This document shows positions 24,236-62,328 of a stretch of DNA of 64,000 bases, in pieces. How positions within the stretch are numbered: the stretch's first letter is position 1; each line of letters starts with the position of its first letter. Origin of the DNA: a virus; UHGV virus genome UHGV-1374671. The stretch is one strand, 5' to 3'. The notes under the pieces were generated by a model. The model did not search any database and was not told where the DNA came from. It worked only from the letters and a program-made list of their open reading frames with translations. A program made the translations under genes and the position numbers.

Positions 24236-25924
24236 ATGCCTGTTGTGAAGTCAAATCTGTCCAGTGATGCTGTTGGCATAATCCGACTTACCGCCGGTGG
24301 TTCCTCTTTTGTATGTACTGCCTTGCAGTATACGATGCGGATGAACAACATCCCGGTCGCAACTGTCACCATTGGAAGCGGAGCGTCTCTGCGGTCACCA
24401 GGAGGTCGTTATCAGACTCCGGAGGAATTGTTGTCCGCAGTGCTGGACAAGCGCAAGGCTGCGTACTCCGACATGGTTGAATGCGCTATGGAAGAGGTCA
24501 TCAACATTGGTGGAGTAAGGCGTACCACTACGATATTCAAAGGCGTGATCGTAACTGGGTCCCCTGTTTACAGGGCCGGCACCCCTACCACCAGAATGAT
24601 CCGGTTCATGTGCATGAACAAGGTCTGCAAGCTCTACACCAAGCCGTTGACCGAGTATGTCAACATGGCAGGCACAGAAGTGATCCAGAAATGGCAGAAG
24701 CGTGACCCGTTCGCAGTGGCCGGAGCTATGGAGCATAACAACCTGTACAGCACAGGAAAACTCAGCGTACCGCAGCTGCTGGAACGTTATGCGTCCAAGC
24801 TGAAGGATGCTACTGTTGTGGAGCGCGTTTCCACCATCACCGGAGCCGTGTTGAATGCAGCTTCCTATCAGGAGAGGGGTGAGACCACTGATTTCAACAT
24901 CGGCGAATACTTCTGCGGAAAGGCCAGGCCGAACACTGATGATTACGGAGATCAGTGTGGAGATGAGTTCAACTCCACATTCTGTCAATACTTGATCCAG
25001 GCCATGCAGAATTCCTCCATTTACGACGCCCTGCAGAGTGTGCTGACATCCGAGTCCTATATGTTGGATCTGCTTCCCAGATGGGACGGCGAGTCGAAAG
25101 AGGACTTCCGTATGGAGATCAGACCTTCCGAGGCCTGGAATCCTAGCGAACCGATCACCATCAAGGAATCTTCCGTCATCGGTATAGACTCCAATTACAA
25201 TCCGATTGCGTGTGTGAACACGCCTGAGGTGTTCATTGTGAACTTCAGTGACGCTGTCGAGTTTGCCATGGACAACATGCCGAACGGCCGTATTGGCCTG
25301 AACGGGGTGTACGCGATGAATGAGACCCTGTGCAACGCGCTCAAGCAGCGCTATCGGAGCGGGAACTCCTGGCTGTCGGCCGAAGATGGAAAACGCATGT
25401 ACAGGGCAAAGTTGTACACGGCCCCGTTCTGGATGCAGCCTGCCATTATCGACCCCAAAAAGGCGAGGAAAGGCACAGACGGCAAGAACTCGGTCAAGAA
25501 CGAGCTTCCTCCTATGGACCCGAAATCTGACAACGAGCAGCCAGATACTCCGGAACCCGCATCCGAGACCCAGAAAAGACTCAATGACATCGCAGACGAC
25601 ATTGCCGAGTCCCTGTTCGCGTTTATTTACGGGAGACAGGACAGATCCATAGTCAGTCTGTACCCGTCACTGCGTTTCGGATACGGTGACGTGTCCCTGG
25701 AAAACAATCTGGGAAAGGCGGTCGACATCGAGTTCACGCCGGACAGCAGAAACAGCTCTTCCGCTGCGAAATCCGTTATGAATATCAGGGGTATTCTGGA
25801 AGCTGTTCAGTACGATTACACCGCAGGACAGTCCACTTCCGCATCGTACACCATAGAACTGAAGTGCGTCCGTCCGCTGGACAAAAACGAGCCGGCTGTA
25901 CCTTGCAAGTTATACAAAGAATAA
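24236..25924 (+). CDS. baseplate hub/late-control-D-like protein (putative)
   Basis: 562 aa after tape measure gene. Confidence 0.35.
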   Translation: MPVVKSNLSSDAVGIIRLTAGGSSFVCTALQYTMRMNNIPVATVTIGSGASLRSPGGRYQTPEELLSAVLDKRKAAYSDMVECAMEEVINIGGVRRTTTIFKGVIVTGSPVYRAGTPTTRMIRFMCMNKVCKLYTKPLTEYVNMAGTEVIQKWQKRDPFAVAGAMEHNNLYSTGKLSVPQLLERYASKLKDATVVERVSTITGAVLNAASYQERGETTDFNIGEYFCGKARPNTDDYGDQCGDEFNSTFCQYLIQAMQNSSIYDALQSVLTSESYMLDLLPRWDGESKEDFRMEIRPSEAWNPSEPITIKESSVIGIDSNYNPIACVNTPEVFIVNFSDAVEFAMDNMPNGRIGLNGVYAMNETLCNALKQRYRSGNSWLSAEDGKRMYRAKLYTAPFWMQPAIIDPKKARKGTDGKNSVKNELPPMDPKSDNEQPDTPEPASETQKRLNDIADDIAESLFAFIYGRQDRSIVSLYPSLRFGYGDVSLENNLGKAVDIEFTPDSRNSSSAAKSVMNIRGILEAVQYDYTAGQSTSASYTIELKCVRPLDKNEPAVPCKLYKE

Positions 25925-25935
25925 GGAATACCGGC

Positions 25936-26742
25936 ATGGAAAATCTATTTGATCGAATTGTCAAAACCGTACCGCCGCCGAAGCCGGAAGACGTGGCTAA
26001 GCTCAACGAATTGGATGCAGCAAAGCAGCCCGACCCGACAAAACCGCTTCCGTTGAAGGACCTGGTTGCACGGTGGCAGAAAAACCCGACTTCGGAGGAC
26101 ACTTCCGAGATCCTTCATCAGCTGCAGCCTACCATCAAGTCAGCTATGACCAGTTACGCTCCTGGCATGGATAAACAACTGTCCATCAAGGCGGCCACAC
26201 TTGCGCTGGATGCAATGAAGACATACAATCCGGATAAAGGCGCCGATCCTACTACGCATGCGTTTCACAATCTGAAACGACTCAGCCGGCTCAGCGCCGA
26301 CAGGAACAGCATCATTCCGCAACCGGAGGGGGCCAGGTTGGAGACTCAGCGGTTGATGGAACTTGCGGCGCGTTTCGAGGACGAGAGGGGTCGTGAGCCC
26401 TCCTTTGGAGAGCTGGCGGACATGACAGGCCTGAGCACCAAGCGCGTTGCCAAGCTGATGAGCGGCAATACAGTCATCAACGACACCAGCAGTCTGTCGG
26501 AGGAATCCAAGGAGTCCACGTTCACTCAGAAGGATCTCACTGACGAGGACTATTTCGAGTATGTGTACTCCTCTGTCGGACCTGTTGATCAGAAGATCAT
26601 GGAATGGACGTCAGGAATGCATGGCAGACCGCAGCTGAGCAACGGGGAAATCGCCACTAAGCTGGGGATCAGCGCCGCAGCGGTGAGCCAGCGCAAAAAC
26701 AAGATCATGCAGATGATATCGGATGTGAGGGCCGTGCTATGA
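25936..26742 (+). CDS. sigma-70 family RNA polymerase sigma factor (FliA/sigma-28-like)
   Basis: region-2-like (DPTTHAFHNLKR), region 3 HTH (GELADMTGLSTKRVAKLM), region 4.2 HTH (GEIATKLGISAAAVSQRKNKIMQ). Confidence 0.6.
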   Translation: MENLFDRIVKTVPPPKPEDVAKLNELDAAKQPDPTKPLPLKDLVARWQKNPTSEDTSEILHQLQPTIKSAMTSYAPGMDKQLSIKAATLALDAMKTYNPDKGADPTTHAFHNLKRLSRLSADRNSIIPQPEGARLETQRLMELAARFEDERGREPSFGELADMTGLSTKRVAKLMSGNTVINDTSSLSEESKESTFTQKDLTDEDYFEYVYSSVGPVDQKIMEWTSGMHGRPQLSNGEIATKLGISAAAVSQRKNKIMQMISDVRAVL

Positions 26743-42631: not shown

Positions 42632-43057
42632 ATGATCAAACTTACCTACACGAAAGTGGCTGCTCTCAGGAAGTTGGCTTATGGCGGGGATATGGGAGAC
42701 GGTTCCTATTACGACCGCACGTACATCCCGCTTCCAGGACTGGATGAGTGGGACCCGGAGCTGAACAAGGAGTATAACAACGCTGATGCGCTCATCAAGG
42801 AGCTGGACAGTTGGCTCCCGATGTACAAAAGACATCTCAAGTCCTTTGCCAAGGACCCGGACAACTCCGTCATGGTCAGTCAGCACGCATACAACGTGAA
42901 CGACAATGGGGACGTGGACGAAATCCCTCTGTCGGAGTGGGTGGCCCGCTACAATGCTGCCAAAAAGGCAAAAGATCCGAAAGCGCTGCGGGATATCGGC
43001 TCATACGCCTTCTACAGGTACGCTGAGCCCAGGAAGAAATTTCTGGGCATTTTCTAA
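42632..43057 (+). CDS. hypothetical protein (141 aa)
   Basis: ATG overlapping stop TGACATG. Confidence 0.45.
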   Translation: MIKLTYTKVAALRKLAYGGDMGDGSYYDRTYIPLPGLDEWDPELNKEYNNADALIKELDSWLPMYKRHLKSFAKDPDNSVMVSQHAYNVNDNGDVDEIPLSEWVARYNAAKKAKDPKALRDIGSYAFYRYAEPRKKFLGIF

Positions 43058-43146
43058 CGAAAATAGCTTAAAATCGCCCACTTTTAGGGCATAATAAGGT
43101 GGATGGAATTTAACATCCGGTTGCTGGGACCTTAACCGGCTGATCT

Positions 43147-43179
43147 GCTCCTTCTCATCGAAGGAGCGTTTTCATTTTT
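43147..43179 (+). terminator. rho-independent terminator ending the long plus-strand operon
   Basis: GCTCCTTC-TCATC-GAAGGAGC followed by GTTTTCATTTTT. Confidence 0.7.
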
Positions 43180-43300
43180 ACACTGGCTTGATTTGATCGG
43201 TGATTCGCCGACCGTGTTGATCGTCACAAAGCGGTACTGAAGTCGCAGCATGACGAACTGGATCCTGGTCAGGAACCGTTCTGAGAATCAGACGCTCATC

Positions 43301-43332
43301 CTTCCCAGCCTCGCTTGCGGAGCTGGGAAGGA
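43301..43332. repeat. 10-bp inverted repeat CCTTCCCAGC...GCTGGGAAGG with 12-nt loop
   Basis: seen directly. Confidence 0.6.
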
Positions 43333-43465
43333 ACATCGTCTCTCAAAGAGTAAACTCTTCGAGTGAACTCTTCGAGTGAAGCGACACGCTTCAGATTCCC
43401 AGAACTTACTTCCGACCAGGATCCATATTTATACTGCGTGAAGCCAGATTTTCTGATTTGAGTTG

Positions 43466-43482
43466 TCCTATGCTTCGTAGGA
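43466..43482. repeat. hairpin family member 1: TCCTA-TGCTTCG-TAGGA
   Basis: 5-bp stem, invariant 7-nt loop. Confidence 0.6.
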
Positions 43483-43696
43483 TTGAATGTTTAGTGCGTG
43501 AATGCATTGAAATTACAATCGTTCTTTCACACGCAGCGAACGGGATCCCTTCGTTTCCTTCCTCGGTAACGGCACGCCGTTACCGGATACGTCAACGAAA
43601 GGGATCCCTCACGCTGCATTGTTCATTCTCAGACTGCAAGAAATCAGAACAGCCGGTACGTTGGGGCTGTAAATCCAATGAGCAAACTGGAACTTT

Positions 43697-43713
43697 GCAT
43701 ATGCTTCGTATGC
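43697..43713. repeat. hairpin family member 2: GCATA-TGCTTCG-TATGC
   Basis: 5-bp stem, same loop, different stem sequence. Confidence 0.6.
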
Positions 43714-43937
43714 TGATGAACCTGGTAACTGACACCAGTAAGTATCGATGTGACATGGGCTGCGCTCTGAGTCGCGATCTGTTCACCGGGCTTAAAACTC
43801 GCAGCCTGGCGGCTGCGTGTTCACAGCCACGTTCACAAACGCGACTCAGAGCGCTTTTCGCCCTTGTCTTGAATATGTCACCGCCATCAATAGCAGTTTG
43901 CATTTTCTACTCCAGATATAAAATCCTCTATGACCCG

Positions 43938-43954
43938 GTATGTGGTTCGCATAC
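43938..43954. repeat. hairpin family variant: GTATG-TGGTTCG-CATAC
   Basis: loop variant TGGTTCG. Confidence 0.45.
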
Positions 43955-44290
43955 AAGCCCAGCAGTCAGATTTGCCTGTTGAAATGTGAAACCCTGCGAG
44001 AACCATGAACCTTCCTGGAAGTGGTTTTCCAGGAAGTTCATTTCGTCTCGCTGTCTCGGGTTTCAGATAGAGGTGTGTTTGTTGAATTTCTGTATGATTC
44101 GTACAGGTGATGTAGTGTACGACTGTCCATGTAAACAGCATGGTCGTTACCACTATTACGACTCAACTGGACCTACCGTCTGGCGCCCGCTACCTTAACC
44201 GGAATGCGAGGCGCCTGACGACGGTCCATTGAGTCTACATAGTTATAACAACCGCTTCAGAACAAACACCGTCCTTACTGATTTTGAATT

Positions 44291-44309
44291 TTGCCGTGCT
44301 TCGCGGCAA
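44291..44309. repeat. hairpin family member 3: TTGCCG-TGCTTCG-CGGCAA (preceded by TTGAATT)
   Basis: 6-bp stem. Confidence 0.6.
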
Positions 44310-44475
44310 TGTGTGCGGCACCAAATCCAGTGTCGGAAACAAGGTTCTGCATACAAACCGGCTCCCTCCTGAATTTCTGCCTTAGATGCGGGGATCGCCC
44401 CCGCATCTACAGCCAAAATTCAGCGGGTTCCGGCTTGACTTTGAACCATTAGAAAATCAGTCGATTACTTGAATT

Positions 44476-44494
44476 CTTTGGTGCTTCGCCAAAG
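44476..44494. repeat. hairpin family member 4: CTTTGG-TGCTTCG-CCAAAG (preceded by TTGAATT)
   Basis: 6-bp stem. Confidence 0.6.
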
Positions 44495-44666
44495 TGCGCG
44501 TATGTCTGGAATACGTGTTTAAACAAGAATGAGCTTGCATCAGTACGACGACCAGTCATGCAGCGCCTTCGTCTTCTTTCAGAAGTACAAAGGACGCATG
44601 CAGACTGGCGTCTCCCTATCCCCAAGCATATTCTTCAGAAGTAATCAAATTACGCGAATTGACTAG

Positions 44667-44683
44667 GTCAGTGCTTCGCTGAC
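44667..44683. repeat. hairpin family member 5: GTCAG-TGCTTCG-CTGAC (preceded by GAATTGAC)
   Basis: 5-bp stem. Confidence 0.6.
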
Positions 44684-44858
44684 ACGGGAAAACGTAGCGG
44701 CATCCCTGATGGAGTAATGACGTTCATTTACCTGCAGGATACCAGCCTACACGAACACATCGATCCCTTGGCTTCCGTCGAGCTTCGACGAAGCTCAGAC
44801 TCCACCAAGGAGATCTTATGTTATTCGTTACGGCCTGGACACCTGCTGGCAATTCATC

Positions 44859-45239
44859 TCATTTTGAATTCGCGTTCTTTCCGGCTTCCCGTTTCTCGAA
44901 TTCAAGCGCGACAGCGGGAATCGGCATGTTCAGCTTTCTGCGTTGCTCACAGGCCTCCAGAATGCGTATGCGGAAGTCCTTGGCGATGTCCGCCAGCGTA
45001 TCCCATCCTCTGATCCCGTACCTGAAATAGTGTGAGACAGTGAGCTGGGTGTCGTTGTACTTCTCGATAGCCTTTCCAAGCGGGAAGATCACGTCCCGCT
45101 GGCCTTGCCTTCCACGAAGCACGATATCGCCGTTCACAGCCTCCAGTAAACCGATTCCACCAAAGGTCTGCGTGGAATCCTGCAGACTGGAATATCTGTC
45201 TGCTTTCGGCTTTCCTGCTTCTTTTTTTACATTGTCCAT
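44859..45239 (-). CDS. hypothetical protein (126 aa), downstream of terminase on minus strand
   Basis: minus ORF; possible HTH; not assigned as the terminase small subunit because it follows rather than precedes the terminase large-subunit gene. Confidence 0.4.
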   Translation of the reverse strand: MDNVKKEAGKPKADRYSSLQDSTQTFGGIGLLEAVNGDIVLRGRQGQRDVIFPLGKAIEKYNDTQLTVSHYFRYGIRGWDTLADIAKDFRIRILEACEQRRKLNMPIPAVALEFEKREAGKNANSK

Positions 45240-45250
45240 GCTGGCGCTCC

Positions 45251-47086
45251 TTATATGAACTGGTTGTCAGGTGTTATTACGGATGCTCTCAAATCCACGG
45301 CTTCCTTGAAGCGCTCGAAATCCCCTCTGGGACCAAACACTTCGTCGTCCATGATCTTGTTGTGGTTCTCGTCGAAGTCCAGTACGGACGCGTCGTATCT
45401 GGAGCCGATTTTGGGATATGCTCCGAAGTGGTCCCATATCTGGGAGCATCCGAAGTTGACGGCATGCGCGAAGTCGTCAGGCGCTCCCGGCTTCTTGATG
45501 ATCAGCACGACGGTTTCGTTCCCCATGGACTTTCTGGGATCCTCCCGAAGGGCCAGCAAATCGCGCTGGAAGGCCTTCTCATCGGTTTCGGCGAATCCGG
45601 GCAGTCTGACCCGGGTTGCCTTGATCGACATCACTGTGATCGCCAGAGAGCGGCTTTTATCAAGGGTGTAGTAGTACAGGTCCGACTCACGCATCCCGGT
45701 ATGGGGAACCATCACATCCCCGGCACGGGGCCTGACGTAGTTGATGGGAATGACGATCAGCCCGGGAATGTCCCGCAGCCCCTGGTGGTTCATGATCTCC
45801 AGCCGGGCGAACCCGGCCCCGCCGTTGTCGTAAGTGAAGGCGTCGGCACCGGTTCCCCGTATCCAGTCCATGATCTCGTTCGCTTCATCGGTAGGAGTGA
45901 CGCCGTGCTTGATGCGCTTCCCGTACAGCACGTCGATCACGTCCGAATCCCGCCGCAGCCCCAGCACGGCATACGCGGTGTACGAATCGCTGACCATGGA
46001 ACCGCCTGACCAGTCCACCGCAACCGTGATGTACGAGTACAGATGCTTCAGCCCACGTACATCGGCAGGACGCTGCACGGAGATGTCATGCGTGGCCTTC
46101 TGCAGGTCGGACATGGTCAATGGGCTGGTGGCCGCATCGTAGGGCCACCCGAACACTTCGTTGTACAGCGCCAGCGGCGCATAGTTCTCGATCTTGTCCA
46201 GCAGCTTGTTCCACTTGTCCTGCGACAGGATGTGAAGCGGGTGCACTGTCTGCGAGATGTGATATCCGGGAAACGACAACTGGCGTTCCGGTCTGGCGTG
46301 CACGTATCCGCCGTTCTTGGGAAACACCGGCTTTCCGCAGTGGGCGCATACCGGGCCGTGCTTGCCGATCATCTTCAGCAGGTGCTGTTCCGGGTTCGGG
46401 ATGTTGAACTTGTTGCAGTGCTCGCAGCGGATCACCCACTCGGCCTGGCTGGAGCGGTTCCACAGCAGCGCCAGTGTGGTATCGGTGGTTTTGGGTGTTC
46501 CGGTGTACCGGGCGAAGCCCCAGAAAATCGAGGCCGACATCATCTCGTTACCGATGTCAATGAACTCGTACTCAATGTCTTGCACTTCATCCCACGTGGT
46601 GCTGGCCACGTTCGAGATACCGCGAGCCCGATCCGGTGACTCGAACATATGTTCTGCATAACACATGGATCCATTTTTAAATTCGCGTAAAGCCATTTTC
46701 TGCAATTCCGTGCTCTGAATGAACTGGGTTCGGATAGGGCAGGAGGAAAGGAGGGGTCTGTAAACAGTATTCACTAAACGCTGCACCTGGTCCGCTCTGG
46801 GCTGGATCAGCACTGTGTGGTAGTAGGGAATCAGCATGTTCCTGAGTCCGATATCGGCGGATATGCTGTACGACTTACCAAGCTGGCGGCCGCACATGTA
46901 AACAGAATGGGGAGACTGGACTGTGCTGAACATCGGTGCGAACTGATAGTGCAGATGCAGCGTCATGGGCTTTCCATTCAGCCGGAACAAGCATAGGAAA
47001 GGGATCAACGTCTTCAGTGATCCCTTCCTGATCTTATCGTAGGCATCCGCAAAGATGCTGTTCAGTTTTGTCGTTGAATTCGTCAT
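45251..47086 (-). CDS. terL: terminase large subunit
   Basis: Walker A CGRQLGKSY, Walker B-like DEVQDIE, C-terminal RNaseH-like nuclease (VAVDWSGG...DNGGAG); 611 aa. Confidence 0.7.
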   Translation of the reverse strand: MTNSTTKLNSIFADAYDKIRKGSLKTLIPFLCLFRLNGKPMTLHLHYQFAPMFSTVQSPHSVYMCGRQLGKSYSISADIGLRNMLIPYYHTVLIQPRADQVQRLVNTVYRPLLSSCPIRTQFIQSTELQKMALREFKNGSMCYAEHMFESPDRARGISNVASTTWDEVQDIEYEFIDIGNEMMSASIFWGFARYTGTPKTTDTTLALLWNRSSQAEWVIRCEHCNKFNIPNPEQHLLKMIGKHGPVCAHCGKPVFPKNGGYVHARPERQLSFPGYHISQTVHPLHILSQDKWNKLLDKIENYAPLALYNEVFGWPYDAATSPLTMSDLQKATHDISVQRPADVRGLKHLYSYITVAVDWSGGSMVSDSYTAYAVLGLRRDSDVIDVLYGKRIKHGVTPTDEANEIMDWIRGTGADAFTYDNGGAGFARLEIMNHQGLRDIPGLIVIPINYVRPRAGDVMVPHTGMRESDLYYYTLDKSRSLAITVMSIKATRVRLPGFAETDEKAFQRDLLALREDPRKSMGNETVVLIIKKPGAPDDFAHAVNFGCSQIWDHFGAYPKIGSRYDASVLDFDENHNKIMDDEVFGPRGDFERFKEAVDLRASVITPDNQFI

Positions 47087-48128: not shown

Positions 48129-48150
48129 GTACTTAAATAAATTTAAGTAC
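48129..48150. promoter_or_regulatory. AT-rich perfect palindrome GTACTTAAAT-AA-ATTTAAGTAC (operator-like)
   Basis: 10-bp arms. Confidence 0.4.
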
Positions 48151-48184
48151 CTTAGTCGCGCCCGTGCATACGTACACGTGAGAG

Positions 48185-48660
48185 CCAGTCCAGCCATGGC
48201 GGAGCTCTCCCCTCCCCCATGACCAATCAGCGCCGCAGGCTCTCGAGACGATTTCCGCCGGGACGGCGGAAATTCTCGCCGCGTAGCGCGCGCTAGCGCG
48301 CTGAATGCGCACGCGCAGGCGCGATAGAAGATCGCGCGATCTTCTACGCGCGCCTCCCCGGCGCATACCTGCGGATCTGCGCACGCATTATGCGTGCGCT
48401 ACCCGCATCGCAGGACTTGCGCGTGCGCATTATGCCTGCCGCCCGAAATACCGCACGCCTTGTAACACGCGAAACTGGTGATGCGCTTGCGCATACCGCG
48501 CAGCGCGCGAGGATGAAGCCCGGTCCAGCGCCTGACGAAGCCTCCAACCTGCGGTATACCCACCCTTGCCCCTTCGGGCACAACCGCTAGCGCGGTTGCC
48601 AAGGCATTGGGGATAACGCAGGTTTCGGCTTCTAACCCAGCCATGCCTGCTGACGCAGGA
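48185..48660. repeat. GC-rich non-coding island containing at least five distinct perfect palindromes, flanked by 9-bp direct repeat CCAGCCATG (48190 and 48637)
   Basis: palindromes TTTCCGCCG-GGA-CGGCGGAAA, GCGCGCTAGCGCGC, AGAAGATCGCGCGATCTTCT, GCGCACGCAT-T-ATGCGTGCGC, AACCGCTAGCGCGGTT; only Arg-rich spurious ORFs. Confidence 0.55.
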
Positions 48661-48711: not shown

Positions 48712-48830
48712 TGAAACGCAAATAGAGCGATTTTGAGGCCCACATAGCTGTCACCCCATGTCGTTGCCCGGTTTTGAGACCGATCGCCATCAGAAGGGCC
48801 TCAGAATTGATTTATCTGGTATTCGCACCG
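48712..48830. repeat. direct repeat copy A (~110 bp, starts CAAATAGAGCGATTTTGAGGCCCACATAG)
   Basis: 29-nt identical head then ~75% similar body vs copy B. Confidence 0.6.
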
Positions 48831-48885
48831 GATACCTGACCCGGCTTTCGCACCACCATCAGCTGATCCAGGTCTAAGCGCCGGT

Positions 48886-48960
48886 GAAAACACCGGATTC
48901 AGACGCCGGAAAACGACCGATTCAGCGCCAGGAGAACCACCGGATTCAGCGACCCTGTTC
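48886..48960. repeat. three spaced CCGGATTCAG/CCGATTCAG iteron-like repeats
   Basis: seen directly. Confidence 0.45.
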
Positions 48961-49007
48961 ACGACTGTTAATCCCTGCGCCAGGTTTTCATGCCAGGTTT
49001 ATCGGGA

Positions 49008-49125
49008 TTCAAATAGAGCGATTTTGAGGCCCACATAGATCGACCCCTAGTGAGAGCCCGTTTTCGACCACGTCGTCGATCAGAGACAGTCAGGAATCGA
49101 TTTATCGGGCATTTCCATCAAGTTG
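49008..49125. repeat. direct repeat copy B
   Basis: see copy A. Confidence 0.6.
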
Positions 49126-52458: not shown

Positions 52459-53736
52459 ATGAAAATTGTACTGGCCGATACAGTGATCACTGTGTTCGGG
52501 TGGCTCAATGTGATGGATCAGATCGGAAAGTACAAGCTGAAGATCCGCAAGACTCCTCAGGAGATCCGTGAGGAGAAGGAGATCAGACGACAGCGGTACG
52601 GAAGCGACGCCCATAAGGTGAATCCTATGCGGTACGAAGATCGCACCGTGATCGCCAAGAATCCGTCTGATCCTACCATCGCATACTTTCTCCCAGGGCT
52701 GTGGCCACGGGTGAAAGGCTATCTGGATACGCAGAAGATTACATACGAAATCGAGGACAAAAGGGATCCTTCCATCAGGCCTGACCCGGACTATTCAAAA
52801 CTGGCCGGAGCGACATTGAGACCAGGACAGGATACCGCCTTGGCCCTGATTACGTCGTTGGATTGTGGGCTAATAAATACCAGCACGGCATGGGGAAAAA
52901 GCCATCTAATATCTTTTATATGCAAGGTTTATCCCACGCTTAACATTGTCGTCACCACTGGATCCACCACGGTGGTCTCAACTCTGTACGAATATCTGTG
53001 CAAGCAGCTGCCCGGCCAGGTCGGTTACCTGTACGCCAGGGGCAACACCACGCATGGAAAACGGGTGATTGTGACCACGCTGAAGTCGTTGCCGAACATC
53101 TCTCCTGAGCGCGTCCAGTTGCTGTTGTGCGACGAGTGTCATGCCTGCGGAGACAACGAGGCCGGCAGGGCAGTGTCCAAGTTTGTGTTCAGCCGCAGAT
53201 TTGGATTCTCCGCCAGTCCGATCCGCAATGACGGCTCCAGAATCGTTATGGAGTCCATCTTCGGACCTGAGATCATGAAGATGACCTACCAGGAGTCTGT
53301 TGACGTTGGAAACATCGTTCCCATGAAGTACCTGATGCTGCCTTGTCACAAAGGGCCAACCAGCTTGTGCGACAAGCCGGGCATGGACGATGTATTCAAG
53401 AAGCGCTTCGGGTACTGGTGCAACTACAACAGGAACAGGGCTATTGTGGAACTGGTCTACGACATCAAGCAGGTGTATGAGGGCCAGATTTTGATAATGG
53501 TCGGTTCACTGGAACACGCAATTCAGTTGCACATTATGCTGCCCTGGTTCAAGGTCGCTCATTATGGCGCAACTGACTTGGACGAACTCAAGAAAAAGAA
53601 GTTCTCCAAAGACAAATACTCCGACATTGACTTTTCTCAGTACAAGATGAGCCAGAAGCAGCTGGACATTATGCGGGCCGCCTTTGCAAAAGGTACGCTC
53701 AGGTACGTGATCTGCACCAAAGTGTTTAAACAAGGT
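52459..53736 (+). CDS. SF2 DECH-box DNA helicase, exon 1
   Basis: motif I TAWGKSHL, motif II DECH; ORF runs into intron and hits stop 24 nt inside it. Confidence 0.6.
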
Positions 53737-54002
53737 AAACATCAATGCCTCGCAGCATAGGAATGTGCTGTCGTGAGCCGCTTAATTGCTGGGAACTCCG
53801 ACCGGGTAATGCCGAGGACAATCAGCAGCGAAGTCCTGAAAAGTAGGAAACGTTCAACGACTATCCCTGCGGGGAGTACACGCAAGTGCGTGGAAACAGC
53901 GGCCACCCAGAACGGGTGAAGATATAGTCTGACCTTGCATGGTAACATGCAGCTGGATTAACAATCCGGGCTGAGCGTAACGAACTCAGTTGAACACAAA
54001 AG
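53737..54002 (+). ncRNA. group I self-splicing intron (266 nt, no ORF) in helicase gene
   Basis: AATTGCTGGGAA P3/P4-like element, UAGUC P7-like element, P1 pairing exon CAAGGU with intron GCCUCG giving G.U at 5' splice site, intron ends in G; exon junction restores helicase motifs V-VI in frame. Confidence 0.6.
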
Positions 54003-54284
54003 GTTGATTTTAAAGCACTTACGGTGTTGTTCCGTGGAGACGGCGACGTGTCTGGTGTGGAATGTATCCAGATCCCTGGCCGAGTTGCCCGTCTGTCGGA
54101 AGGCAAGGACTGCGGTTACCTGATCGACGTCAATGACACGTTCAGCACTTGGTCCAGAGAGCGGTCACAGGCCAGAGAGAAGCAATATCAGGAGCAGAAA
54201 TGGACGAAGATAACAAGGGAGGATCTGCTGGATGATCTCCGTAGACTCACTGAAGGCAACCCTGACAGGGCTTCTGGGGAGTAG
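54003..54284 (+). CDS. SF2 helicase exon 2 (motif VI QIPGRVAR)
   Basis: in-frame continuation after predicted splice. Confidence 0.55.
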   Translation, partial: VDFKALTVLFRGDGDVSGVECIQIPGRVARLSEGKDCGYLIDVNDTFSTWSRERSQAREKQYQEQKWTKITREDLLDDLRRLTEGNPDRASGE

Positions 54285-56747: not shown

Positions 56748-57878
56748 GTGTTGAACAAACCACTCTATGACACGCTTGTGCGCATGTTCAAGCGTGTCGA
56801 AATCGCCAACGAAGGGCAGCATGCACGGGTCAGCAGGAAAGCGGGTACCGTGTCGGCGTGGTGTATTGAAAGGAACAACGAACACGGTGAGCAGTACCGT
56901 GTGAATTGTCCTTTCTGCGACGACCGGAACAAGCACCTCTACATTTCGTATCTGTCCTACATTCGTCCAGTCGTGAACGGTCAGGTGCTTCAGGTAGGCA
57001 AATTGAGAGCCCAGTGCTTTCGCAGAGGCTGTCTGAAGAAGATTGAGAACAGAGAATGGCTCGAAGGGCAGATCGCTATGTACAGGTTAGCTCTTGGAGC
57101 AGGTGCGGAAATTCCAAACATTGAAATCTCGGAAACAGACTCGGAAACCCTTCCCAGATACGAGGTGTCGGACGACATTTCCGTGGATGGGTTCAAGACA
57201 TGGGTACCTGATTATGAGCCGATCACAGCGCAGTCCAGGAGTGACATTCTGGAGTACCTGGCGGCTCGTCGTGTGTCCATGGATGACGTGGAATGGATGA
57301 GACTCGGCTGGGGGCCTGTCAAGTCCCCGCGTTCAGGCAACTACCTGAACAACGGCAGTCCGTTCATTCTGATTCCGATGATACAGAACAACCAAGTGAA
57401 GGGCATCCAGGGCAGGTGCCTTCCCCAGTACCTGAAGGAGGACGGCATCAAATACTGGATTCACCCTGCCTGCAGAAAACGTACTGTTGTGCTGAACATC
57501 GACATTGCCAGACAGCTCGGCCTTGGTGTCGTCTGTGAAGGCGCTTTCGATGTGCTCAGCATTGGTAAACCGGGCGTATGCACCTTTGGACATACACCAT
57601 CAGAAACGCAAAGGCGGTTGCTTACCACGTTCTCACAGGGCATCATATGGTGTCCTGACACGGACGTGACGCCGAGGCTGAATCCTATTCAGATCGCCAG
57701 GGAGCATGTTGCTGTCTGGAACGCGTCCAATGCGTTTCCGAAAGGTGCGCACGTCGTAGAACTGTCCCAGAAAGATGCCGGCAGTATGTCCCGGCAGCAA
57801 GTATGGGAGGAGATCGTTTCCCAGGTTCCTGCTCATATGCAGGACTTCCTGCTGGAGAGGATCATCCCAAACCTATAG
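56748..57878 (+). CDS. DnaG-type DNA primase (CHC2 zinc finger + TOPRIM)
   Basis: CPFCDD...H...C zinc motif; TOPRIM EGAFDVLS...DTD; GTG start with GGAGG upstream. Confidence 0.6.
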   Translation: MLNKPLYDTLVRMFKRVEIANEGQHARVSRKAGTVSAWCIERNNEHGEQYRVNCPFCDDRNKHLYISYLSYIRPVVNGQVLQVGKLRAQCFRRGCLKKIENREWLEGQIAMYRLALGAGAEIPNIEISETDSETLPRYEVSDDISVDGFKTWVPDYEPITAQSRSDILEYLAARRVSMDDVEWMRLGWGPVKSPRSGNYLNNGSPFILIPMIQNNQVKGIQGRCLPQYLKEDGIKYWIHPACRKRTVVLNIDIARQLGLGVVCEGAFDVLSIGKPGVCTFGHTPSETQRRLLTTFSQGIIWCPDTDVTPRLNPIQIAREHVAVWNASNAFPKGAHVVELSQKDAGSMSRQQVWEEIVSQVPAHMQDFLLERIIPNL

Positions 57879-57895
57879 GAACAGAGGAGATCGAG

Positions 57896-58924
57896 ATGCA
57901 AGACTTAGGCGTCGTCGACGTCAGCATGCGGCACTTTGTCGGGCCGGTTCACATCCGGGTATGGGAGCCCGGAGATCCGTTCCCGACACTGGGGCCTTCC
58001 GTTGGCGTTGACACAGAAACCGAGCTGATCACGGACACGGTGAAGGACCCGCCGGTAGTTGTTACCGGCGTGTTCGACCCTGCGAACTCGAATTGCTGGA
58101 TCGTTTACTGGCAGCATACCGCAGCGTTCATGCGGGAGCTGAACAAGCGCGACATCCAGCAGAGGTACTTCAACGTCGGGTTCGACGAACAGGTGCTCGA
58201 CAACGAGGACGAGGAGAAGAGCCTTCTGACGGCTGTCGACGCAAGGCGGGTGCGTGATATGCAGATCCGCATTCACCTGCACGAGATCGCCACGCTGGGT
58301 TGGATCCGAGGCAATCTGTACAACCTGGCGGACTGTGCTCTGCACTTCCTGAATGTGACGCTGGACAAGGGTGATCCGGACGACTACGAGAACTCTGCAC
58401 GAATGACGTTTCGGCGGCATAATAAAGATGGGAGCGTTTATCGCATAACGGATGAACAGGCCAAATACCTGTGTTATGACTGCGCTTCCACCTGGGGTCT
58501 CGGAGAATCGGTACCGGAACAGCCAACCGAGGTGGAACATACCAAGGGCATGATCGTCCTGGCACACATCAGCACCAACGGCATTCAGGTCGACCCTGTA
58601 GTGTTCGACGCCATGGAGGAGAAGCTGTTCAAAGCCAGGGACGAGGCCAGGCTTCGTCTGCTGGCGTTTGGATTCCCAGATCCGTACAAGGACGTCAAGA
58701 AGGAGGCCGCAGCCGAGCGTCAGCTTTTCTACTCGGAATACAAAAAGCTGTGTGAATCGGCAGGACTGGAGTGCCATCTCGGCATGGAGGAACAGACACT
58801 CGATGACGAAGACGAAACCGTCATTCAGGTTCCTAAAATACCAAAGAAGGACTCTCTCAGGCTGATGGTCTGCTACCTGTATCGATGCTTCACGTTCGTA
58901 CACAATACCAAGAACGCGGCGTAG
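57896..58924 (+). CDS. family-A DNA polymerase N-terminal 3'-5' exonuclease domain (exon 1 or separate exo gene)
   Basis: Exo I VGVDTETELI, Exo III YLCYD; stop codon TAG coincides with first bases of intron-like sequence. Confidence 0.55.
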   Translation: MQDLGVVDVSMRHFVGPVHIRVWEPGDPFPTLGPSVGVDTETELITDTVKDPPVVVTGVFDPANSNCWIVYWQHTAAFMRELNKRDIQQRYFNVGFDEQVLDNEDEEKSLLTAVDARRVRDMQIRIHLHEIATLGWIRGNLYNLADCALHFLNVTLDKGDPDDYENSARMTFRRHNKDGSVYRITDEQAKYLCYDCASTWGLGESVPEQPTEVEHTKGMIVLAHISTNGIQVDPVVFDAMEEKLFKARDEARLRLLAFGFPDPYKDVKKEAAAERQLFYSEYKKLCESAGLECHLGMEEQTLDDEDETVIQVPKIPKKDSLRLMVCYLYRCFTFVHNTKNAA

Positions 58925-59247
58925 GTACCTTTGCGGCGTGAGCCGCATCGAAGAAGAAAGTGAATTGCTGGAAGCCTAAACCGGGAGTGTAGCCCGGCAT
59001 GGTAATCAGCAGCCAATCAACCGGATCGCTAAACTGGATTCAACCATCCAGCATGCACCGGGGAAAAGGTTCAACGATCATCGGGGTGTCCACCTGATAA
59101 GCGGCCCCGTTAGCGTGCAAGCGTGCGCGAAGTGCTCCGTGACGGGAAACCGTCACGATGATATGATCTGTGCTACCCGAAAGGGATAGGAAGCCCCAGC
59201 CTGATCAGCTGGATAAGCCGGGTGAGCGTAGCGAACTCACTTGAACA
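58900..59247 (+). ncRNA. group I intron ribozyme core homologous to helicase intron (5' part of IStron)
   Basis: blocks GTGAGCCGC, AATTGCTGG, CCGGG...GCCCGG, AATCAGCAGC, GTTCAACGA, CAGCTGGAT, GAGCGTAGCGAACTCACTTGAACA co-linear with 53737-54002; exact 5' splice site unresolved. Confidence 0.55.
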
Positions 59248-59355: not shown

Positions 59356-60462
59356 GTGATAAGCAGAGCTCATACAATCAAGCTGAAACCCAATAAAGCA
59401 CAGGCGATCATGCTGGCCAAGACGGCCGGTACTGCCAGGTATGCCTACAACTGGGGATTGGCCAAGTGGAATGAGCTGTACGAAGCCGGTGAGAAGTGCA
59501 GTGCTTACAGCCTGATGAAACTTTGGCAAGAAGGCAGACCTGACTGGGCATTGGAAGTGGGCGCTGCGTGTTTGCAGCGCCCGTTCATGCACCTGGAAGG
59601 CGCCTTCAAAGCGTTCTTCAGAGGACAGCGTAAGCACCCAACCTTTCACAAGAAGGGTTTGCGGGACGGGTTCTACGTCCCGAATACTCATTTCAAACTC
59701 CGTGGTAACAAGGTTCAGCTACCCAAGTGCGGACTTGTCAGAATGACCGAGCGTATTCGTTACGCGGATGTGAAGGTTGTTTCTTCGGCAGTCAAGCACC
59801 AGGCAGACGGCTGGTATGTCGTAATCCAGGTCGAGCTTGAAGAGGAACACAGAACCGAATCCGACTCTTTTGTCGGAGTCGATGTCGGATGTACCCAGCT
59901 CGCAACAGCGAGCGACGGTACGACCTGCTGCTCACCGGCCAAGCTCAAAGACCTGGAACGTCAGCTGAAACGTAGACAGCGCTTGCTGGCACGCAAAGCC
60001 AAGGGCTCCAACAATCGAGCGAAAGCGAGATTGAAGGTAGCCCGTACCTGGCAACGAATCAACAATATCAAACAAGACACAGCTCACAAGTTCACTGCAC
60101 TCATTGCCAAGAACCACGGCACTGTTTGCATTGAAAAGCTGGATGTGAAGAGTATGCAATCAGGAGACAACGCCCTCGTAAGAAAGGGCGTGCATAACTC
60201 CTGCATGTCGGAAATCCTGAGACAACTCAAGTACAAGTGTAACAACTTTATTGAAGTTGACAAGTATTTCCCGTCCAGTAAGACTTGTTCGAACTGTGGG
60301 CACATAAACGCTGAACTGACCCTTGGGGATCGCACGTATAATTGTCCGGGCTGCGGACTGAAAATCGACAGGGATCTGAACGCAGCGTTGAACCTCCGTA
60401 AGGAGGGTCTGAGGATTTACACGGTGGGTCACACCGGCAGTGCCTGTGGAGTTGCCCGGTAA
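59356..60462 (+). CDS. tnpB: TnpB (IS605 OrfB family RNA-guided endonuclease)
   Basis: RuvC-I VGVDVG, RuvC-II E in CIEKLD, zinc finger CSNCGH...CPGCG, RuvC-III DRDLNAALNL; N-terminal OrfB helix-turn-helix region; GTG start after GGAAG. Confidence 0.75.
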   Translation: MISRAHTIKLKPNKAQAIMLAKTAGTARYAYNWGLAKWNELYEAGEKCSAYSLMKLWQEGRPDWALEVGAACLQRPFMHLEGAFKAFFRGQRKHPTFHKKGLRDGFYVPNTHFKLRGNKVQLPKCGLVRMTERIRYADVKVVSSAVKHQADGWYVVIQVELEEEHRTESDSFVGVDVGCTQLATASDGTTCCSPAKLKDLERQLKRRQRLLARKAKGSNNRAKARLKVARTWQRINNIKQDTAHKFTALIAKNHGTVCIEKLDVKSMQSGDNALVRKGVHNSCMSEILRQLKYKCNNFIEVDKYFPSSKTCSNCGHINAELTLGDRTYNCPGCGLKIDRDLNAALNLRKEGLRIYTVGHTGSACGVAR

Positions 60463-60559: not shown

Positions 60560-61453
60560 GTGTGCGAAATGGAGAAACCGTCACTGCGGAAAGACGCCAG
60601 GAACATGTACTCGAAGCTCCTGGAGGACTACGAGATCATGGCGTTCGACCAGGCCACCAAGGGAATCGTCATGCCGTCGTTTGTGGCGCATCTGATGGAG
60701 CACTACAACAAGCAGCGTGATTCCGGAGAGGTCGCAGCAAAGGGCTACGACTTCGGAGCCGCAGTCAAGTACGCCAGCGAGTACATCGACGATCATCCTG
60801 AATGGCTGTCGAAATCCGAGCAGATAGGTCCCAGCAAATTCTTCCAGAATCATGTGAAGGGCATCATGGAGGCCAATCCGAAGCTGGAGCTGGAGACCAC
60901 TCCCAAGAGTGGGGCAGTCAAGCTGACACTCAAGGACAAGTGGCGGTTGGAGGACAACGGCATCAAGGACAAGTTCTTGGATGCTTACATTGACTTCAAT
61001 CATTGCCAGAAATATTTAAGTACCTATATGAACCGTTTGTTCATCAAAGGGGATAATCGGATACATGCCAGGTTCACAAATATTTTGCGGACCGGACGTA
61101 CCAGCTGCACCGGACCTAACTTGCAGAATTATCCCAGCAGGGACAAGGTGTTTCCGTTGAAGAACATCTTCTGTCCTTACGATGGCATGCTGTTGTGTGC
61201 TACCGACTTCTCGTTTATTGAGTTGTGTGGCTTTGCCCAGTCCTGTTACAGCAGGTTTGGGTTCAGCGTTATGCGCGACGTCATCAACGCAGGTCTGGAT
61301 CCGCACCGCTGGTTCGCAGCGGTGATGGACAAGCTGATCAAGCCGGACCTGACGCACAAGGACGACCCGAAATGGGTCGCGGAACTGAAAGGATTTTTGA
61401 AAGCAAATGTAGACGATTCAAGACGACAAAAGGCCAAAATGGCCAATTTCGGT
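60560..61453 (+). CDS. family-A DNA polymerase palm/fingers segment (pre-motif A RIHARFTNILRTGRTSCTGPNLQNYP, motif A DFSFIELC, motif B RRQKAKMANFG)
   Basis: frame open from 60476 immediately after tnpB; ORF stops 6 codons after NFG inside motif B. Confidence 0.6.
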
Positions 61454-61672
61454 CGACCATCAAGGCCGAATTAAAACTGCGGAATTAAGCGGGGAACTCT
61501 CATTGAGACGATCCGAACCGAAGCCTGGAAGGGATTCCAGTCAGGGACAGAGCATACCGGCAGGGGAAGAACTCCCATCAGCCGACACGAGGCCGCAGCA
61601 ACTGGAGAAACAACTCTGGTTGAAAAGATATGCCGAGCTGTGTGGCGACATACAGAAGTGCTGGATAAAAAG
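61454..61672 (+). ncRNA. small group I-like intron (~215 nt) interrupting polymerase motif B
   Basis: interrupts conserved NFGxxYG motif with stops in all frames; shares GCGGGGAACTC and CGAAGCCTGGAAGGGATTCC blocks with the other two introns; boundaries approximate. Confidence 0.45.
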
Positions 61673-62328
61673 CCGGCACGATAACAAAACTGTTTCCAGG
61701 AGCACTGGGTGTCAAGACTTTCTACAGGAACTGCAGGGAGTCCGGCGTACACCTGACCATGGAAGAAGCTGAATTCATGCGGGATGCGTGGATCAGCACT
61801 TTCAAGGAAATGAAGTTCCACATGAAGCCAGAGAAGTTGCGTAACTCGACAGGGTTCGGCAACCAGTTCGGCTTCAGGGACGACGAAGAAGAGTACATCG
61901 ACCCGTCCGAGCAGGACAGGCAGTTGTACAGGGCAAAATTAATTAATGGAATGGTTAGAAACAGGTGCAGTTTCAATGCGGCCTGTAATATGCAATTCCA
62001 AGGGCTCGTGGCATTTGGCGCGAAGCTGGCAGGCTGGAATCTAGTAACTCACGGATACGAACATAGAGTAGTCAATTTCGTACACGACGAATTTCTGTAC
62101 TGCCTGTATCCGGAGGAGCTCAAGGTCCACATCCCTGTCATTGAGCGCCTGATGATCGACGGGATGAGAGTTGCCATCCCGGATGTTAAAGTAGGAGTGG
62201 AATCCAGCGTCATGCGTCATTGGGACAAGAAGGCGACGGAATTCCACGACGTGAAGTGGGACGAGCAGGGAAGACCGCTCATTGAAGAGCCGCTGTTCGT
62301 CCAGAGTGTTCTCAAAATGGCCCAGTAG
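61673..62328 (+). CDS. family-A DNA polymerase C-terminal segment (O-helix tail...motif C VHDE)
   Basis: KLFPGALGVKTF...EEAEFMRDAWISTF continues the post-motif-B region; HDEFLY = motif C. Confidence 0.55.

Follow-up and report, generated by a model that had tools for sequence, protein, structure and literature searches.

We analysed a 64,000-nucleotide window of the virus genome UHGV-1374671, within which an array of small hairpins occupies a gap between convergent genes. The gap (43058-44858) separates the last + strand open reading frame (ORF) of a long late operon, which ends at 43057, from a - strand gene pair comprising a 126-amino-acid ORF (44859-45239) and a lambda gpA-type large terminase, TerL (45251-47086). 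These boundaries agree with the original prediction, made from the letters of the window alone, that about 1.8 kb here is non-coding and lies between genes that point towards one another. Every frame on both strands is interrupted by several kinds of stop codon and no single stop-codon reassignment opens a frame. ARAGORN calls no tRNA genes in the window, and a search of Rfam 15 returns nothing in the array at gathering score, with a relaxed threshold (E <=10) giving only weak matches to generic hairpins.

All of the hairpins lie on the + strand, eight in number within 43187-44687 and none elsewhere in the 64 kb. Their loop centres are at 43204, 43474, 43705, 43946, 44098, 44300, 44485 and 44675, so that successive units from 1 to 8 are spaced by 270, 231, 241, 152, 202, 185 and 190 nt. 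The six hairpins first reported are each found where they had been placed, but two further copies (43197-43211 and 44090-44106) had been overlooked and the true count is eight. A stem of at least 4 bp enclosing TGNTTCG occurs eight times, compared with a mean of 0.11-0.18 in shuffled sequence (maximum 2 across 600 shuffles); the motif count, which had been named beforehand as one of the points on which the family could be refuted, is above chance. By itself the heptamer TGCTTCG shows no enrichment in the window (12 observed, 9.5 expected). When a covariance model built from 70 copies is run over the whole window with filters off, only the eight copies are recovered (17-28.7 bits), and the next best hit scores 14.8. 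Most of the window copies or their orthologues are in the training set of this model, and the informative result of the scan is therefore the absence of matches elsewhere.

Hairpin anatomy and selection for pairing

The heptamer had originally been described as an invariant 7-nt loop, but it is better read as two extra base pairs and a triloop. Its positions 1 and 7 form a covarying pair (T.G, C-G, T-A or A-T across the relatives), positions 2 and 6 form an invariant G-C pair, and the centre is an N-T-N triloop in which the central T is invariant. Folded as RNA, all eight copies adopt 7-8 bp and a triloop, with energies of -6.5 to -10.2 kcal/mol; the same hairpins folded as DNA give -2.9 to -6.8 kcal/mol on the + strand and -1.9 to -5.5 kcal/mol on the - strand. 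The upstream TTGAATT-type box is also real: the bases T-G-A stand at -15 to -13 from the loop centre, leaving 9 nt between box and apex, and this distance is constant relative to the loop and not to the stem base. In ~30% of copies the first base of the TGA box is not T but A, C or G. On the downstream side (+9 to +25) there is no conserved base and no T-run after the small hairpins, and they were rejected as intrinsic (Rho-independent) terminators because no U-tract follows them.

Across the 70 copies, seven of the eight stem positions covary, each with four to six pair types. The first collection of copies had itself required pairing, which makes its figure of 95% paired circular, and two tests free of this flaw were used instead. 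The linear motif TGA-N10-GNTNC, which demands no pairing, has at least five of the seven flanking pairs in 55 of its 57 in-array matches; the 159 matches outside arrays show random pairing (mode 2-3). The other test compares the window with L056, a related contig introduced below, over seven orthologous hairpins and 56 stem pairs. Here 33 pairs are unchanged, 17 have changed on both sides and are still paired, two have changed on one side and are still paired, and four, mostly the outermost, are lost. The unbiased pairing test and the compensatory changes together show that the hairpin structure is under selection. This upholds the proposal that covarying stems around a conserved loop mark a selected single-stranded structure, of RNA or of DNA.

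The pairs that depart from Watson-Crick geometry identify the strand on which this structure forms. Read on the + strand of the window, the stems contain 54 G.T and 8 A.C pairs (binomial p ~8e-12 against the expectation from base composition), and wobbles make up ~13% of all stem pairs. This excess of G.T on the + strand shows that the hairpin forms in the + strand nucleic acid.

Relatives, unit bodies and the setting of the array

A blastn search of the region against 50,697 phage records gave no match; the whole phage is likewise without a nucleotide match there, and most of its proteins belong to no family. Relatives of TerL from IMG/VR and metagenomes are rumen and human-gut contigs, the long ones ~110-192 kb. 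Related contigs with arrays show 46-81% identity in neighbouring proteins, and two closer contigs were found via the 126-amino-acid protein, namely L057, which is nearly identical (174,509 nt), and L056 (~81% in that protein). Gene order is conserved as p408-p305-p206-(RNA region)-p126-TerL...SbcD, and in nearly every locus with enough flanking sequence 4-11 hairpins lie in the interval from p206 to p126, without exception antiparallel to TerL. Applied to 247 kb of related loci, the covariance model gives 78 matches (E <=0.01), all of them in syntenic arrays and again on the opposite strand to TerL. Synteny of the array extends across a phage family, and the comparison with related phages that had been suggested as a check finds the hairpin apex kept at these syntenic arrays. 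What is not supported is the suggestion of a promoter or terminator class used genome-wide: within the 64 kb the motif occurs in one array only, and in relatives it is limited to the syntenic arrays; the hairpins lack a U-tract, and no sigma70 -10 element fits.

Around the hairpins, the gap carries signals that point to transcription in the same direction (Table 1). The sigma70-like promoter at its head recurs as the same element at the syntenic spot in L002, where it lies upstream of a tRNA cluster, and in L006, L040 and L056. It is followed ~50 nt later by an intrinsic terminator, and the two would, by our estimate from the positions, give a ~75-nt leader RNA. In L001, L002, L009 and L015 the first unit likewise begins 4-12 nt after a terminator-like GC-rich hairpin and T-run (by eye), and in L001, L002, L003 and L005 ARAGORN calls tRNA genes between the promoter position and the array, on the hairpin strand. 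Ahead of the convergent ORF, a hairpin and a T-rich tract close the last unit. With a conserved promoter, tRNA genes on the same strand in some relatives, a terminator before the first unit and this hairpin and tract in the last, the whole gap looks like a rightward RNA-gene region. GC content in the array is 0.47-0.49 with a smooth skew, and there are no iterons, AT-rich unwinding element or GC-skew switch. The tRNA region of L002 (14100-17800, - strand) contains several extra GGTTCGAATCC-type T-arm fragments, seen by eye and not called by ARAGORN, which may be degenerate or unusual tRNAs.

The covariance model finds no match in phage N4, nor in L040, a more distant relative (~47% TerL identity). 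At the syntenic place in L040 (7950-11100, - strand) are the same promoter and several tRNA genes and no signature hairpin; instead there is a duplicated ~370-bp segment, with recurring CTACAGAA and TAGAAA boxes (by eye). The hairpin array is thus confined to one clade. The 126-amino-acid protein, which is conserved in the family, has no Pfam or PHROG match, and its AlphaFold model (mean pLDDT 74) has no fold match in the PDB with E <0.5.

The units are ~150-270 nt long and share a zoned layout, in which a conserved module (an AGAA-type box near -40, the TGA box and the hairpin) is followed by a weak A-rich box near +32 and by a long imperfect hairpin of ~55-110 nt. The unit bodies are much more structured than shuffled sequence on both strands (z ~-6). 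The long hairpins reported earlier (at 43301, nested at 43530-43620, and the 15-bp inverted repeat at 43761/43842) are present; so is the tandem repeat placed at 43353-43380, although its unit is 13 nt rather than 14 and it spans 43348-43380. In unit 6 the box and 5' stem arm, TGAATTTTGCCG (44285-44296), recur almost exactly as TGAATTTCTGCC (44370-44381) at the start of the long hairpin, and long hairpins of this kind may arise by internal duplication. Folding energy was tried as a guide to the strand of the long hairpins and rejected: the antisense strand folds better in 38 of 45 units, but dinucleotide shuffles share this bias, which reflects base composition.

Conservation around the small hairpin is asymmetric. 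Between the window and L056, identity is 0.63-0.66 from -40 to -21, rises to 0.84 from -20 to -11, is 0.61-0.64 in the hairpin, and falls to 0.34-0.39 from +10 to +39; the same asymmetry is seen in the pair L004/L017. The ~30 nt upstream of the hairpin are A/G-rich, differ among the units and are kept between orthologues. This pattern links the hairpin to a 5' flank particular to its unit. In the fold of unit 6, the only unit folded for this, the 5' flank of hairpin 7 is mostly unpaired.

Table 1. Features of the gap, in order of position in the 64-kb window. Bit scores are those of the covariance model; L056 entries describe the orthologous hairpin in that contig.
Feature	Position	Strand	Description
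Sigma70-like promoter	43068..43095	+	TTAAAA-N16-CATAAT, within CCACTTTTAGGGCATAAT; promoter scan; head of RNA-gene region
Intrinsic terminator	43146..43179	+	stem 43146-43168 and T-run; terminator scan; first unit begins 8 nt later
Unit 1 module	43187..43216	+	box CTTGATTT; hairpin TCGG-TGATTCG-CCGA (43197-43211); 25.0 bits; L056: compensatory stem swap
Long imperfect hairpin, unit 1 body	43290..43341		inverted-repeat search; tandem repeat next
Tandem repeat	43348-43380		13-nt unit, 2.5 copies
Unit 2 module	43457..43486	+	box TTTGAGTT; hairpin (G)TCCTA-TGCTTCG-TAGGA(T); 25.4 bits; RNA fold -7.4 kcal/mol; L056: stem ATTCA/TGAAT, different yet paired
Long nested hairpin, unit 2 body	43533..43617		inverted repeats and fold
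Unit 3 module	43688..43717	+	degenerate box TGGAACTT; hairpin GCATA-TGCTTCG-TATGC; 17.0 bits; L056: stem ATACG/CGTAT, box TTGAACGT
Long hairpin, unit 3 body	43762..43854		perfect 15-bp arms 43762-43776 / 43840-43854; inner hairpin 43780-43837
Unit 4 module	43929..43958	+	box TATGACCC; hairpin GTATG-TGGTTCG-CATAC; 20.7 bits
Long hairpin, unit 4 body	43984..44068		inner part 44011-44036 then TTCATTTCGT scores as + strand terminator
Unit 5 module	44081..44110	+	box GTTGAATT; hairpin CTGTA-TGATTCG-TACAG (44090-44106); 25.0 bits; L056: A-T to G-C compensatory
Long imperfect hairpin, unit 5 body	44142..44253		inverted repeat and fold
Unit 6 module	44283..44312	+	box TTTGAATT; hairpin TTGCCG-TGCTTCG-CGGCAA; 28.3 bits; L056: C-G to T-A compensatory
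Long hairpin, unit 6 body	44369..44423		5' arm opens with near copy of unit 6 box and stem arm
Unit 7 module	44468..44497	+	box CTTGAATT; hairpin CTTTGG-TGCTTCG-CCAAAG; 28.7 bits; L056: stem TCCGG/CCGGA
Long imperfect hairpin, unit 7 body	44547..44613 (approximate)		RNAfold structure
Unit 8 module	44658..44687	+	box ATTGACTA; hairpin GTCAG-TGCTTCG-CTGAC; 28.4 bits; L056: stem GAGCAG/CTGCTC
Long hairpin, unit 8 body	44762..44815		T-rich ttatgttattcgtt next; just before 3' end of convergent 126-amino-acid ORF

Readings of the array

We tentatively favour a reading in which the gap holds a rightward-transcribed array of small structured RNAs that share one handle recognised by a protein or RNase. 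The original prediction had listed a cluster of small RNAs among several possible functions, and this one fits the context best, given that the hairpins lie on the same strand as the neighbouring tRNA genes and that the upstream promoter is conserved; the function itself stays a proposal. Transcription would run from left to right, starting at the sigma70-like promoter (43068-43095), through units that each present an A/G-rich flank of 25-30 nt, the U-G-A box, the 8-bp hairpin and a fast-evolving stretch with the long imperfect hairpin. The 8-bp hairpin would consist of six free covarying pairs, one Y.G or Watson-Crick pair, the invariant G-C pair and an N-U-N triloop. Acting in RNA, this small hairpin would serve as a common handle for a single protein or ribonuclease, which would contact the apex and the UGA box at their fixed geometry and would mark, excise or stabilise each unit, the starting material being either a longer precursor or weak transcripts of the single units. 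The output of the phage would then be eight different small structured RNAs with one recognition element in common. What we infer here is threefold: the region would be transcribed, the hairpin would act as RNA and not as single-stranded DNA, and a partner protein would exist.

Several points weigh against this reading. Transcription of the array is itself deduced from sequence features, and DNA hairpins tolerate G.T pairs too, so that the wobble bias favours RNA without proving it. No partner protein was found, and the adjoining conserved 126-amino-acid protein has no family or fold match. Neither promoters nor terminators accompany the units consistently: sigma70-like matches occur upstream of the box in 10 of 95 units, and the strongest inner hairpins have no T-runs in either direction (a mean of 2.4 T downstream and 2.35 A upstream; a cruder terminator-per-unit scan was dominated by composition). 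The terminator directly ahead of the first unit is awkward for a read-through precursor. Finally, wobble pairs in the helices of the long hairpins favour neither strand, whether judged by G.T versus A.C at single mismatches or by orthologous substitutions, and these hairpins therefore lend no independent support to a + sense RNA.

There is a distinctly unlikely variant in which the array, independently of CRISPR, encodes guide-like or decoy RNAs. The A/G-rich 25-30 nt flank would here be the working part and the UGA box and hairpin on its 3' side a handle bound, and perhaps cut, by a dedicated hairpin-specific protein, giving 8-11 RNAs directed against nucleic acids or proteins of the host or of competitors. 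In a search for antisense targets, k-mers of the array matched the remainder of the window at chance level.

Explanations that place the small hairpin within a coding sequence or a conventional promoter were rejected. Hidden coding, an alternative code, or TGA as a stop or selenocysteine codon before a SECIS-like hairpin would not tolerate the several stops in every frame, the positions of the hairpins in different frames and the variable T of the box. Small ORFs behind the purine-rich box were dismissed on the start codons, which are inconsistent across the units of L001 (by eye). As a sigma70 promoter with TTGA as its -35 element, whether or not the hairpin is looped out, the module lacks a conserved -10 at the spacing required; hexamers resembling a -10 are in weak excess at -40 to -21. 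The GG-N10-GC spacing of a sigma54 promoter does not fit either (by eye).

The original prediction had raised a promoter class and an origin. Hairpin-type promoters and origin or priming sites are live minority readings that operate on DNA, and the divergent sigma factor (25864-26742) and DnaG-type primase (56748-57878) encoded in the window keep this level open. The former, the main rival to the array of small RNAs, is unlikely, and supposes that the + strand hairpin is extruded and read together with its 5' TGA box by a phage polymerase (an RNA polymerase, the host RNA polymerase with a phage sigma factor, or a primase), with leftward synthesis from the box or near it yielding short non-coding or primer transcripts. 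The architecture agrees with that published for the early promoters of phage N4, in which a GC-rich heptamer is centred on a 3-nt loop, the inverted repeats are free provided that they pair, conservation extends to +1 and recognition is of the template strand (PMC4496689); the hairpin promoters of LUZ7 are similar (PMC9163698). With these promoters, whose stems are 5-7 bp long, the array shares a small triloop hairpin within a conserved heptamer, free complementary arms, a one-sided conserved flank and strand specificity. The N4 promoters P1 and P2 take the form stem-GC-TYC-GC-stem, and P1 includes TGCTTCG with the register shifted by one base; transcription from promoters of this type starts ~11-14 nt from the loop centre. 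In addition, the box lies on the 5' side of the folding strand, which is where an enzyme using that strand as template would start, and both the fixed spacing and the asymmetric conservation are compatible with a promoter; the primase and the sigma factor would provide candidate enzymes. Against this, N4 has 3-9 such promoters per genome, placed upstream of early protein genes at the genome end, and dependent on a giant virion polymerase, whereas here 8-11 copies stand in one gene-free array by tRNA genes, with wobble in the stems, a central T and the conserved flank on the 5' side. No N4- or T7-type polymerase was found among the ORFs of the window (64 kb of a ~174.5-kb genome), the largest of which, at 1023 amino acids, has no family match and no polymerase motifs. 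No ORF in the array would be served in either direction, the motif is absent from gene starts in the 64 kb, and transcription to the left would yield antisense RNA of the late operon and, in the relatives, of the tRNA genes. The fold is also unfavourable, since with ~13% wobble and DNA folding of only -2 to -4 kcal/mol for most copies, cruciform extrusion is unlikely. Moreover, the central loop base on the folding strand is T, and N4 needs a central purine on the template strand; the opposite strand does offer a central A, at the cost of turning the 54 wobbles into A.C mismatches and of a DNA fold of only -1.9 to -5.5 kcal/mol. The covariance model gives no match in the N4 early region.

An improbable alternative that, like the array of small RNAs, works in the RNA sense is a nut-like site, with a boxA-like UGA box and a boxB-like hairpin loading a phage antiterminator or other regulator onto RNA polymerase at its entry into each unit and so controlling read-through of the unit hairpins and perhaps convergent transcription into the terminase operon. 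In the nutL and nutR sites of lambda and P22, boxA is combined with a boxB hairpin bound by N, and one or two such sites stand at the start of protein-coding operons. The array follows the same lambdoid logic of a linear box and then, at a set distance, a hairpin with conserved apex and covarying stem, which a protein would read as RNA; the unit hairpins are strong, some with T-tracts, and the array is directed towards the 3' end of the p126-TerL operon. Yet there are 8-11 tandem copies rather than one or two per operon, the apex is a G-C-closed NUN triloop and not a GNRA-like pentaloop, the (T)TGA box is unlike boxA, and no genes lie downstream that could be expressed. Among the window ORFs scanned, Pfam and PHROG gave no N-, Q- or LoaP-like protein, such proteins being small and divergent. 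Quite improbable is the proposal that the hairpins form on displaced + strand DNA as priming or loading sites in the manner of plasmid ssoA or G4-type single-strand initiation (ssi) elements, as part of an origin beside the replication module. It draws on the strand-specific element itself, whose structure and loop are conserved within divergent, highly folded DNA (the z ~-6 of the unit bodies on both strands), and on the presence of SbcCD, helicase, DnaB, primase and PolA genes 4-18 kb to the right. DnaG-type primases use trinucleotide start sites, and the (Y)TG of the box resembles these. However, 8-11 copies far exceed the needs of known ssi or sso elements, the loop differs from the CS-6 hexamer of ssoA, the iterons, unwinding element and skew switch of an origin are absent, and the array is associated with tRNA genes and a promoter, not with the replication genes. 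Highly improbable, lastly, are a recognition site for the terminase (pac or a cos accessory site) and chance palindromes. The array is near TerL and some contigs of relatives end near the region, but double-stranded DNA sites conserve their arms and not their centre, and here the arms vary and the centre is fixed, so the packaging site offered by the original prediction is unlikely for a strand-specific structure of this kind. The contig ends that recur independently (L028, L033, L041) are 0.7-1.2 kb upstream of TerL, on the opposite side from the array. Chance palindromes are excluded by the shuffle counts.

Returning to the favoured array of small RNAs, one related known system is that of the T4 species 1 and 2 RNAs, which are stable non-tRNA RNAs beside the phage tRNA cluster. 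These are non-coding RNA genes with no assigned function that share a transcription region with tRNAs, but they are single genes with no shared signature hairpin and no tandem layout. CRISPR arrays processed by Cas6 resemble the array in being tandem and of one orientation, with a hairpin element beside a unit-specific segment, and processing by a hairpin-binding nuclease would be plausible here as well. The copies, however, share only box and apex, their stems differ, the units are 150-270 nt with long hairpins, and orthologous units are stable between relatives. A CRISPR array as such was rejected, as there are no near-identical 25-40-nt repeats, the spacing is 152-270 nt and no cas domains were found. 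Nor are these tRNA or tRNA-like genes, since ARAGORN finds no cloverleaf in the window. Retron msr-msd was likewise set aside, with no reverse transcriptase family in the Pfam results for the window ORFs and a likeness limited to a G-containing box, a triloop hairpin and a long hairpin. Integron attC sites, REP/RAYT elements and parS were each rejected on a feature that defines them, be it the missing cassettes, the single orientation or the variable arms. The PeSL cassettes of T4-like phages, which have conserved stems and near-consensus sigma70 -35/-10 elements and are scattered between small ORFs (PMC4122927), also place a recurring stem-loop and a promoter-like box in phage intergenic DNA; they were rejected as a match because the array has variable stems and a conserved apex, shows no -10 correctly spaced from TTGA, and contains no ORFs. 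In the literature searched, the only related concepts found were these PeSLs and the hairpin promoters of N4 and LUZ7. The nut sites differ in loop type and box sequence, with no N-like gene found in the window ORFs scanned, and the array matches no described family.

If the units are RNAs, they would constitute an undescribed family of phage non-coding RNA in large (~110-190 kb) rumen and human-gut phages, with a recognition element that is clear and testable, namely the invariant G, U and C of the apex and the box 9 nt away. The shared handle would imply a dedicated protein partner, obtainable with the hairpin as bait. If they are instead initiation sites on single-stranded DNA, N4-style hairpin recognition would also hold for an unrelated group of phages; the window has a baseplate J gene, and the search of its ORFs turned up no giant virion polymerase. 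On either account the element marks a phage family and is a good seed for a new covariance model.

Other features of the window

The divergent sigma factor mentioned above is a sigma70-family protein (25864-26742, + strand) whose gene lies midway in the structural operon, immediately before the baseplate genes; the protein matches PHROG 351 at 7.6e-9, with Pfam regions 3 and 4 just under their cut-offs. To the right of the array, a 1048-bp segment of the TerL gene (45535-46582) has 94-99% nucleotide identity to the human-gut contigs L019, L020, L027 and L049, none of which has a nucleotide match to the window outside it. The same TerL residues show 95-96% protein identity in L054 and L055, which are binned as uncultured Lentisphaeria, and the GC content is ~0.60 in the segment and ~0.50 around it. 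This looks like a recent mosaic exchange and a hint of the host.

Upstream of TerL there is a second gene-poor stretch (48130-48560 and 48719-49038) with a very GC-rich run of palindromes and an exact 29-nt direct repeat, CAAATAGAGCGATTTTGAGGCCCACATAG, at 48719 and 49010. The ends of L028, L033 and L041 at 0.7-1.2 kb upstream of TerL suggest that a genome end or cos region may lie there. Further to the right, a group I intron (53727-53952; Rfam RF00028, 88 bits) interrupts a helicase gene, with the ORFs on its two sides (52459-53760 and 54024-54284) both matching helicase families. A second group-I-like sequence (58873-59189) scores 26 bits, below the gathering score; a 373-amino-acid ORF upstream (57803-58924) has no family match. 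The group-I-like sequence is followed by a TnpB/IS605 OrfB gene (59356-60462; PHROG 506 at 8e-103), and two fragments of a family A DNA polymerase (60560-61474 and 61759-62328) lie just downstream of the TnpB gene, so that the polymerase gene appears to have been split by mobile elements.

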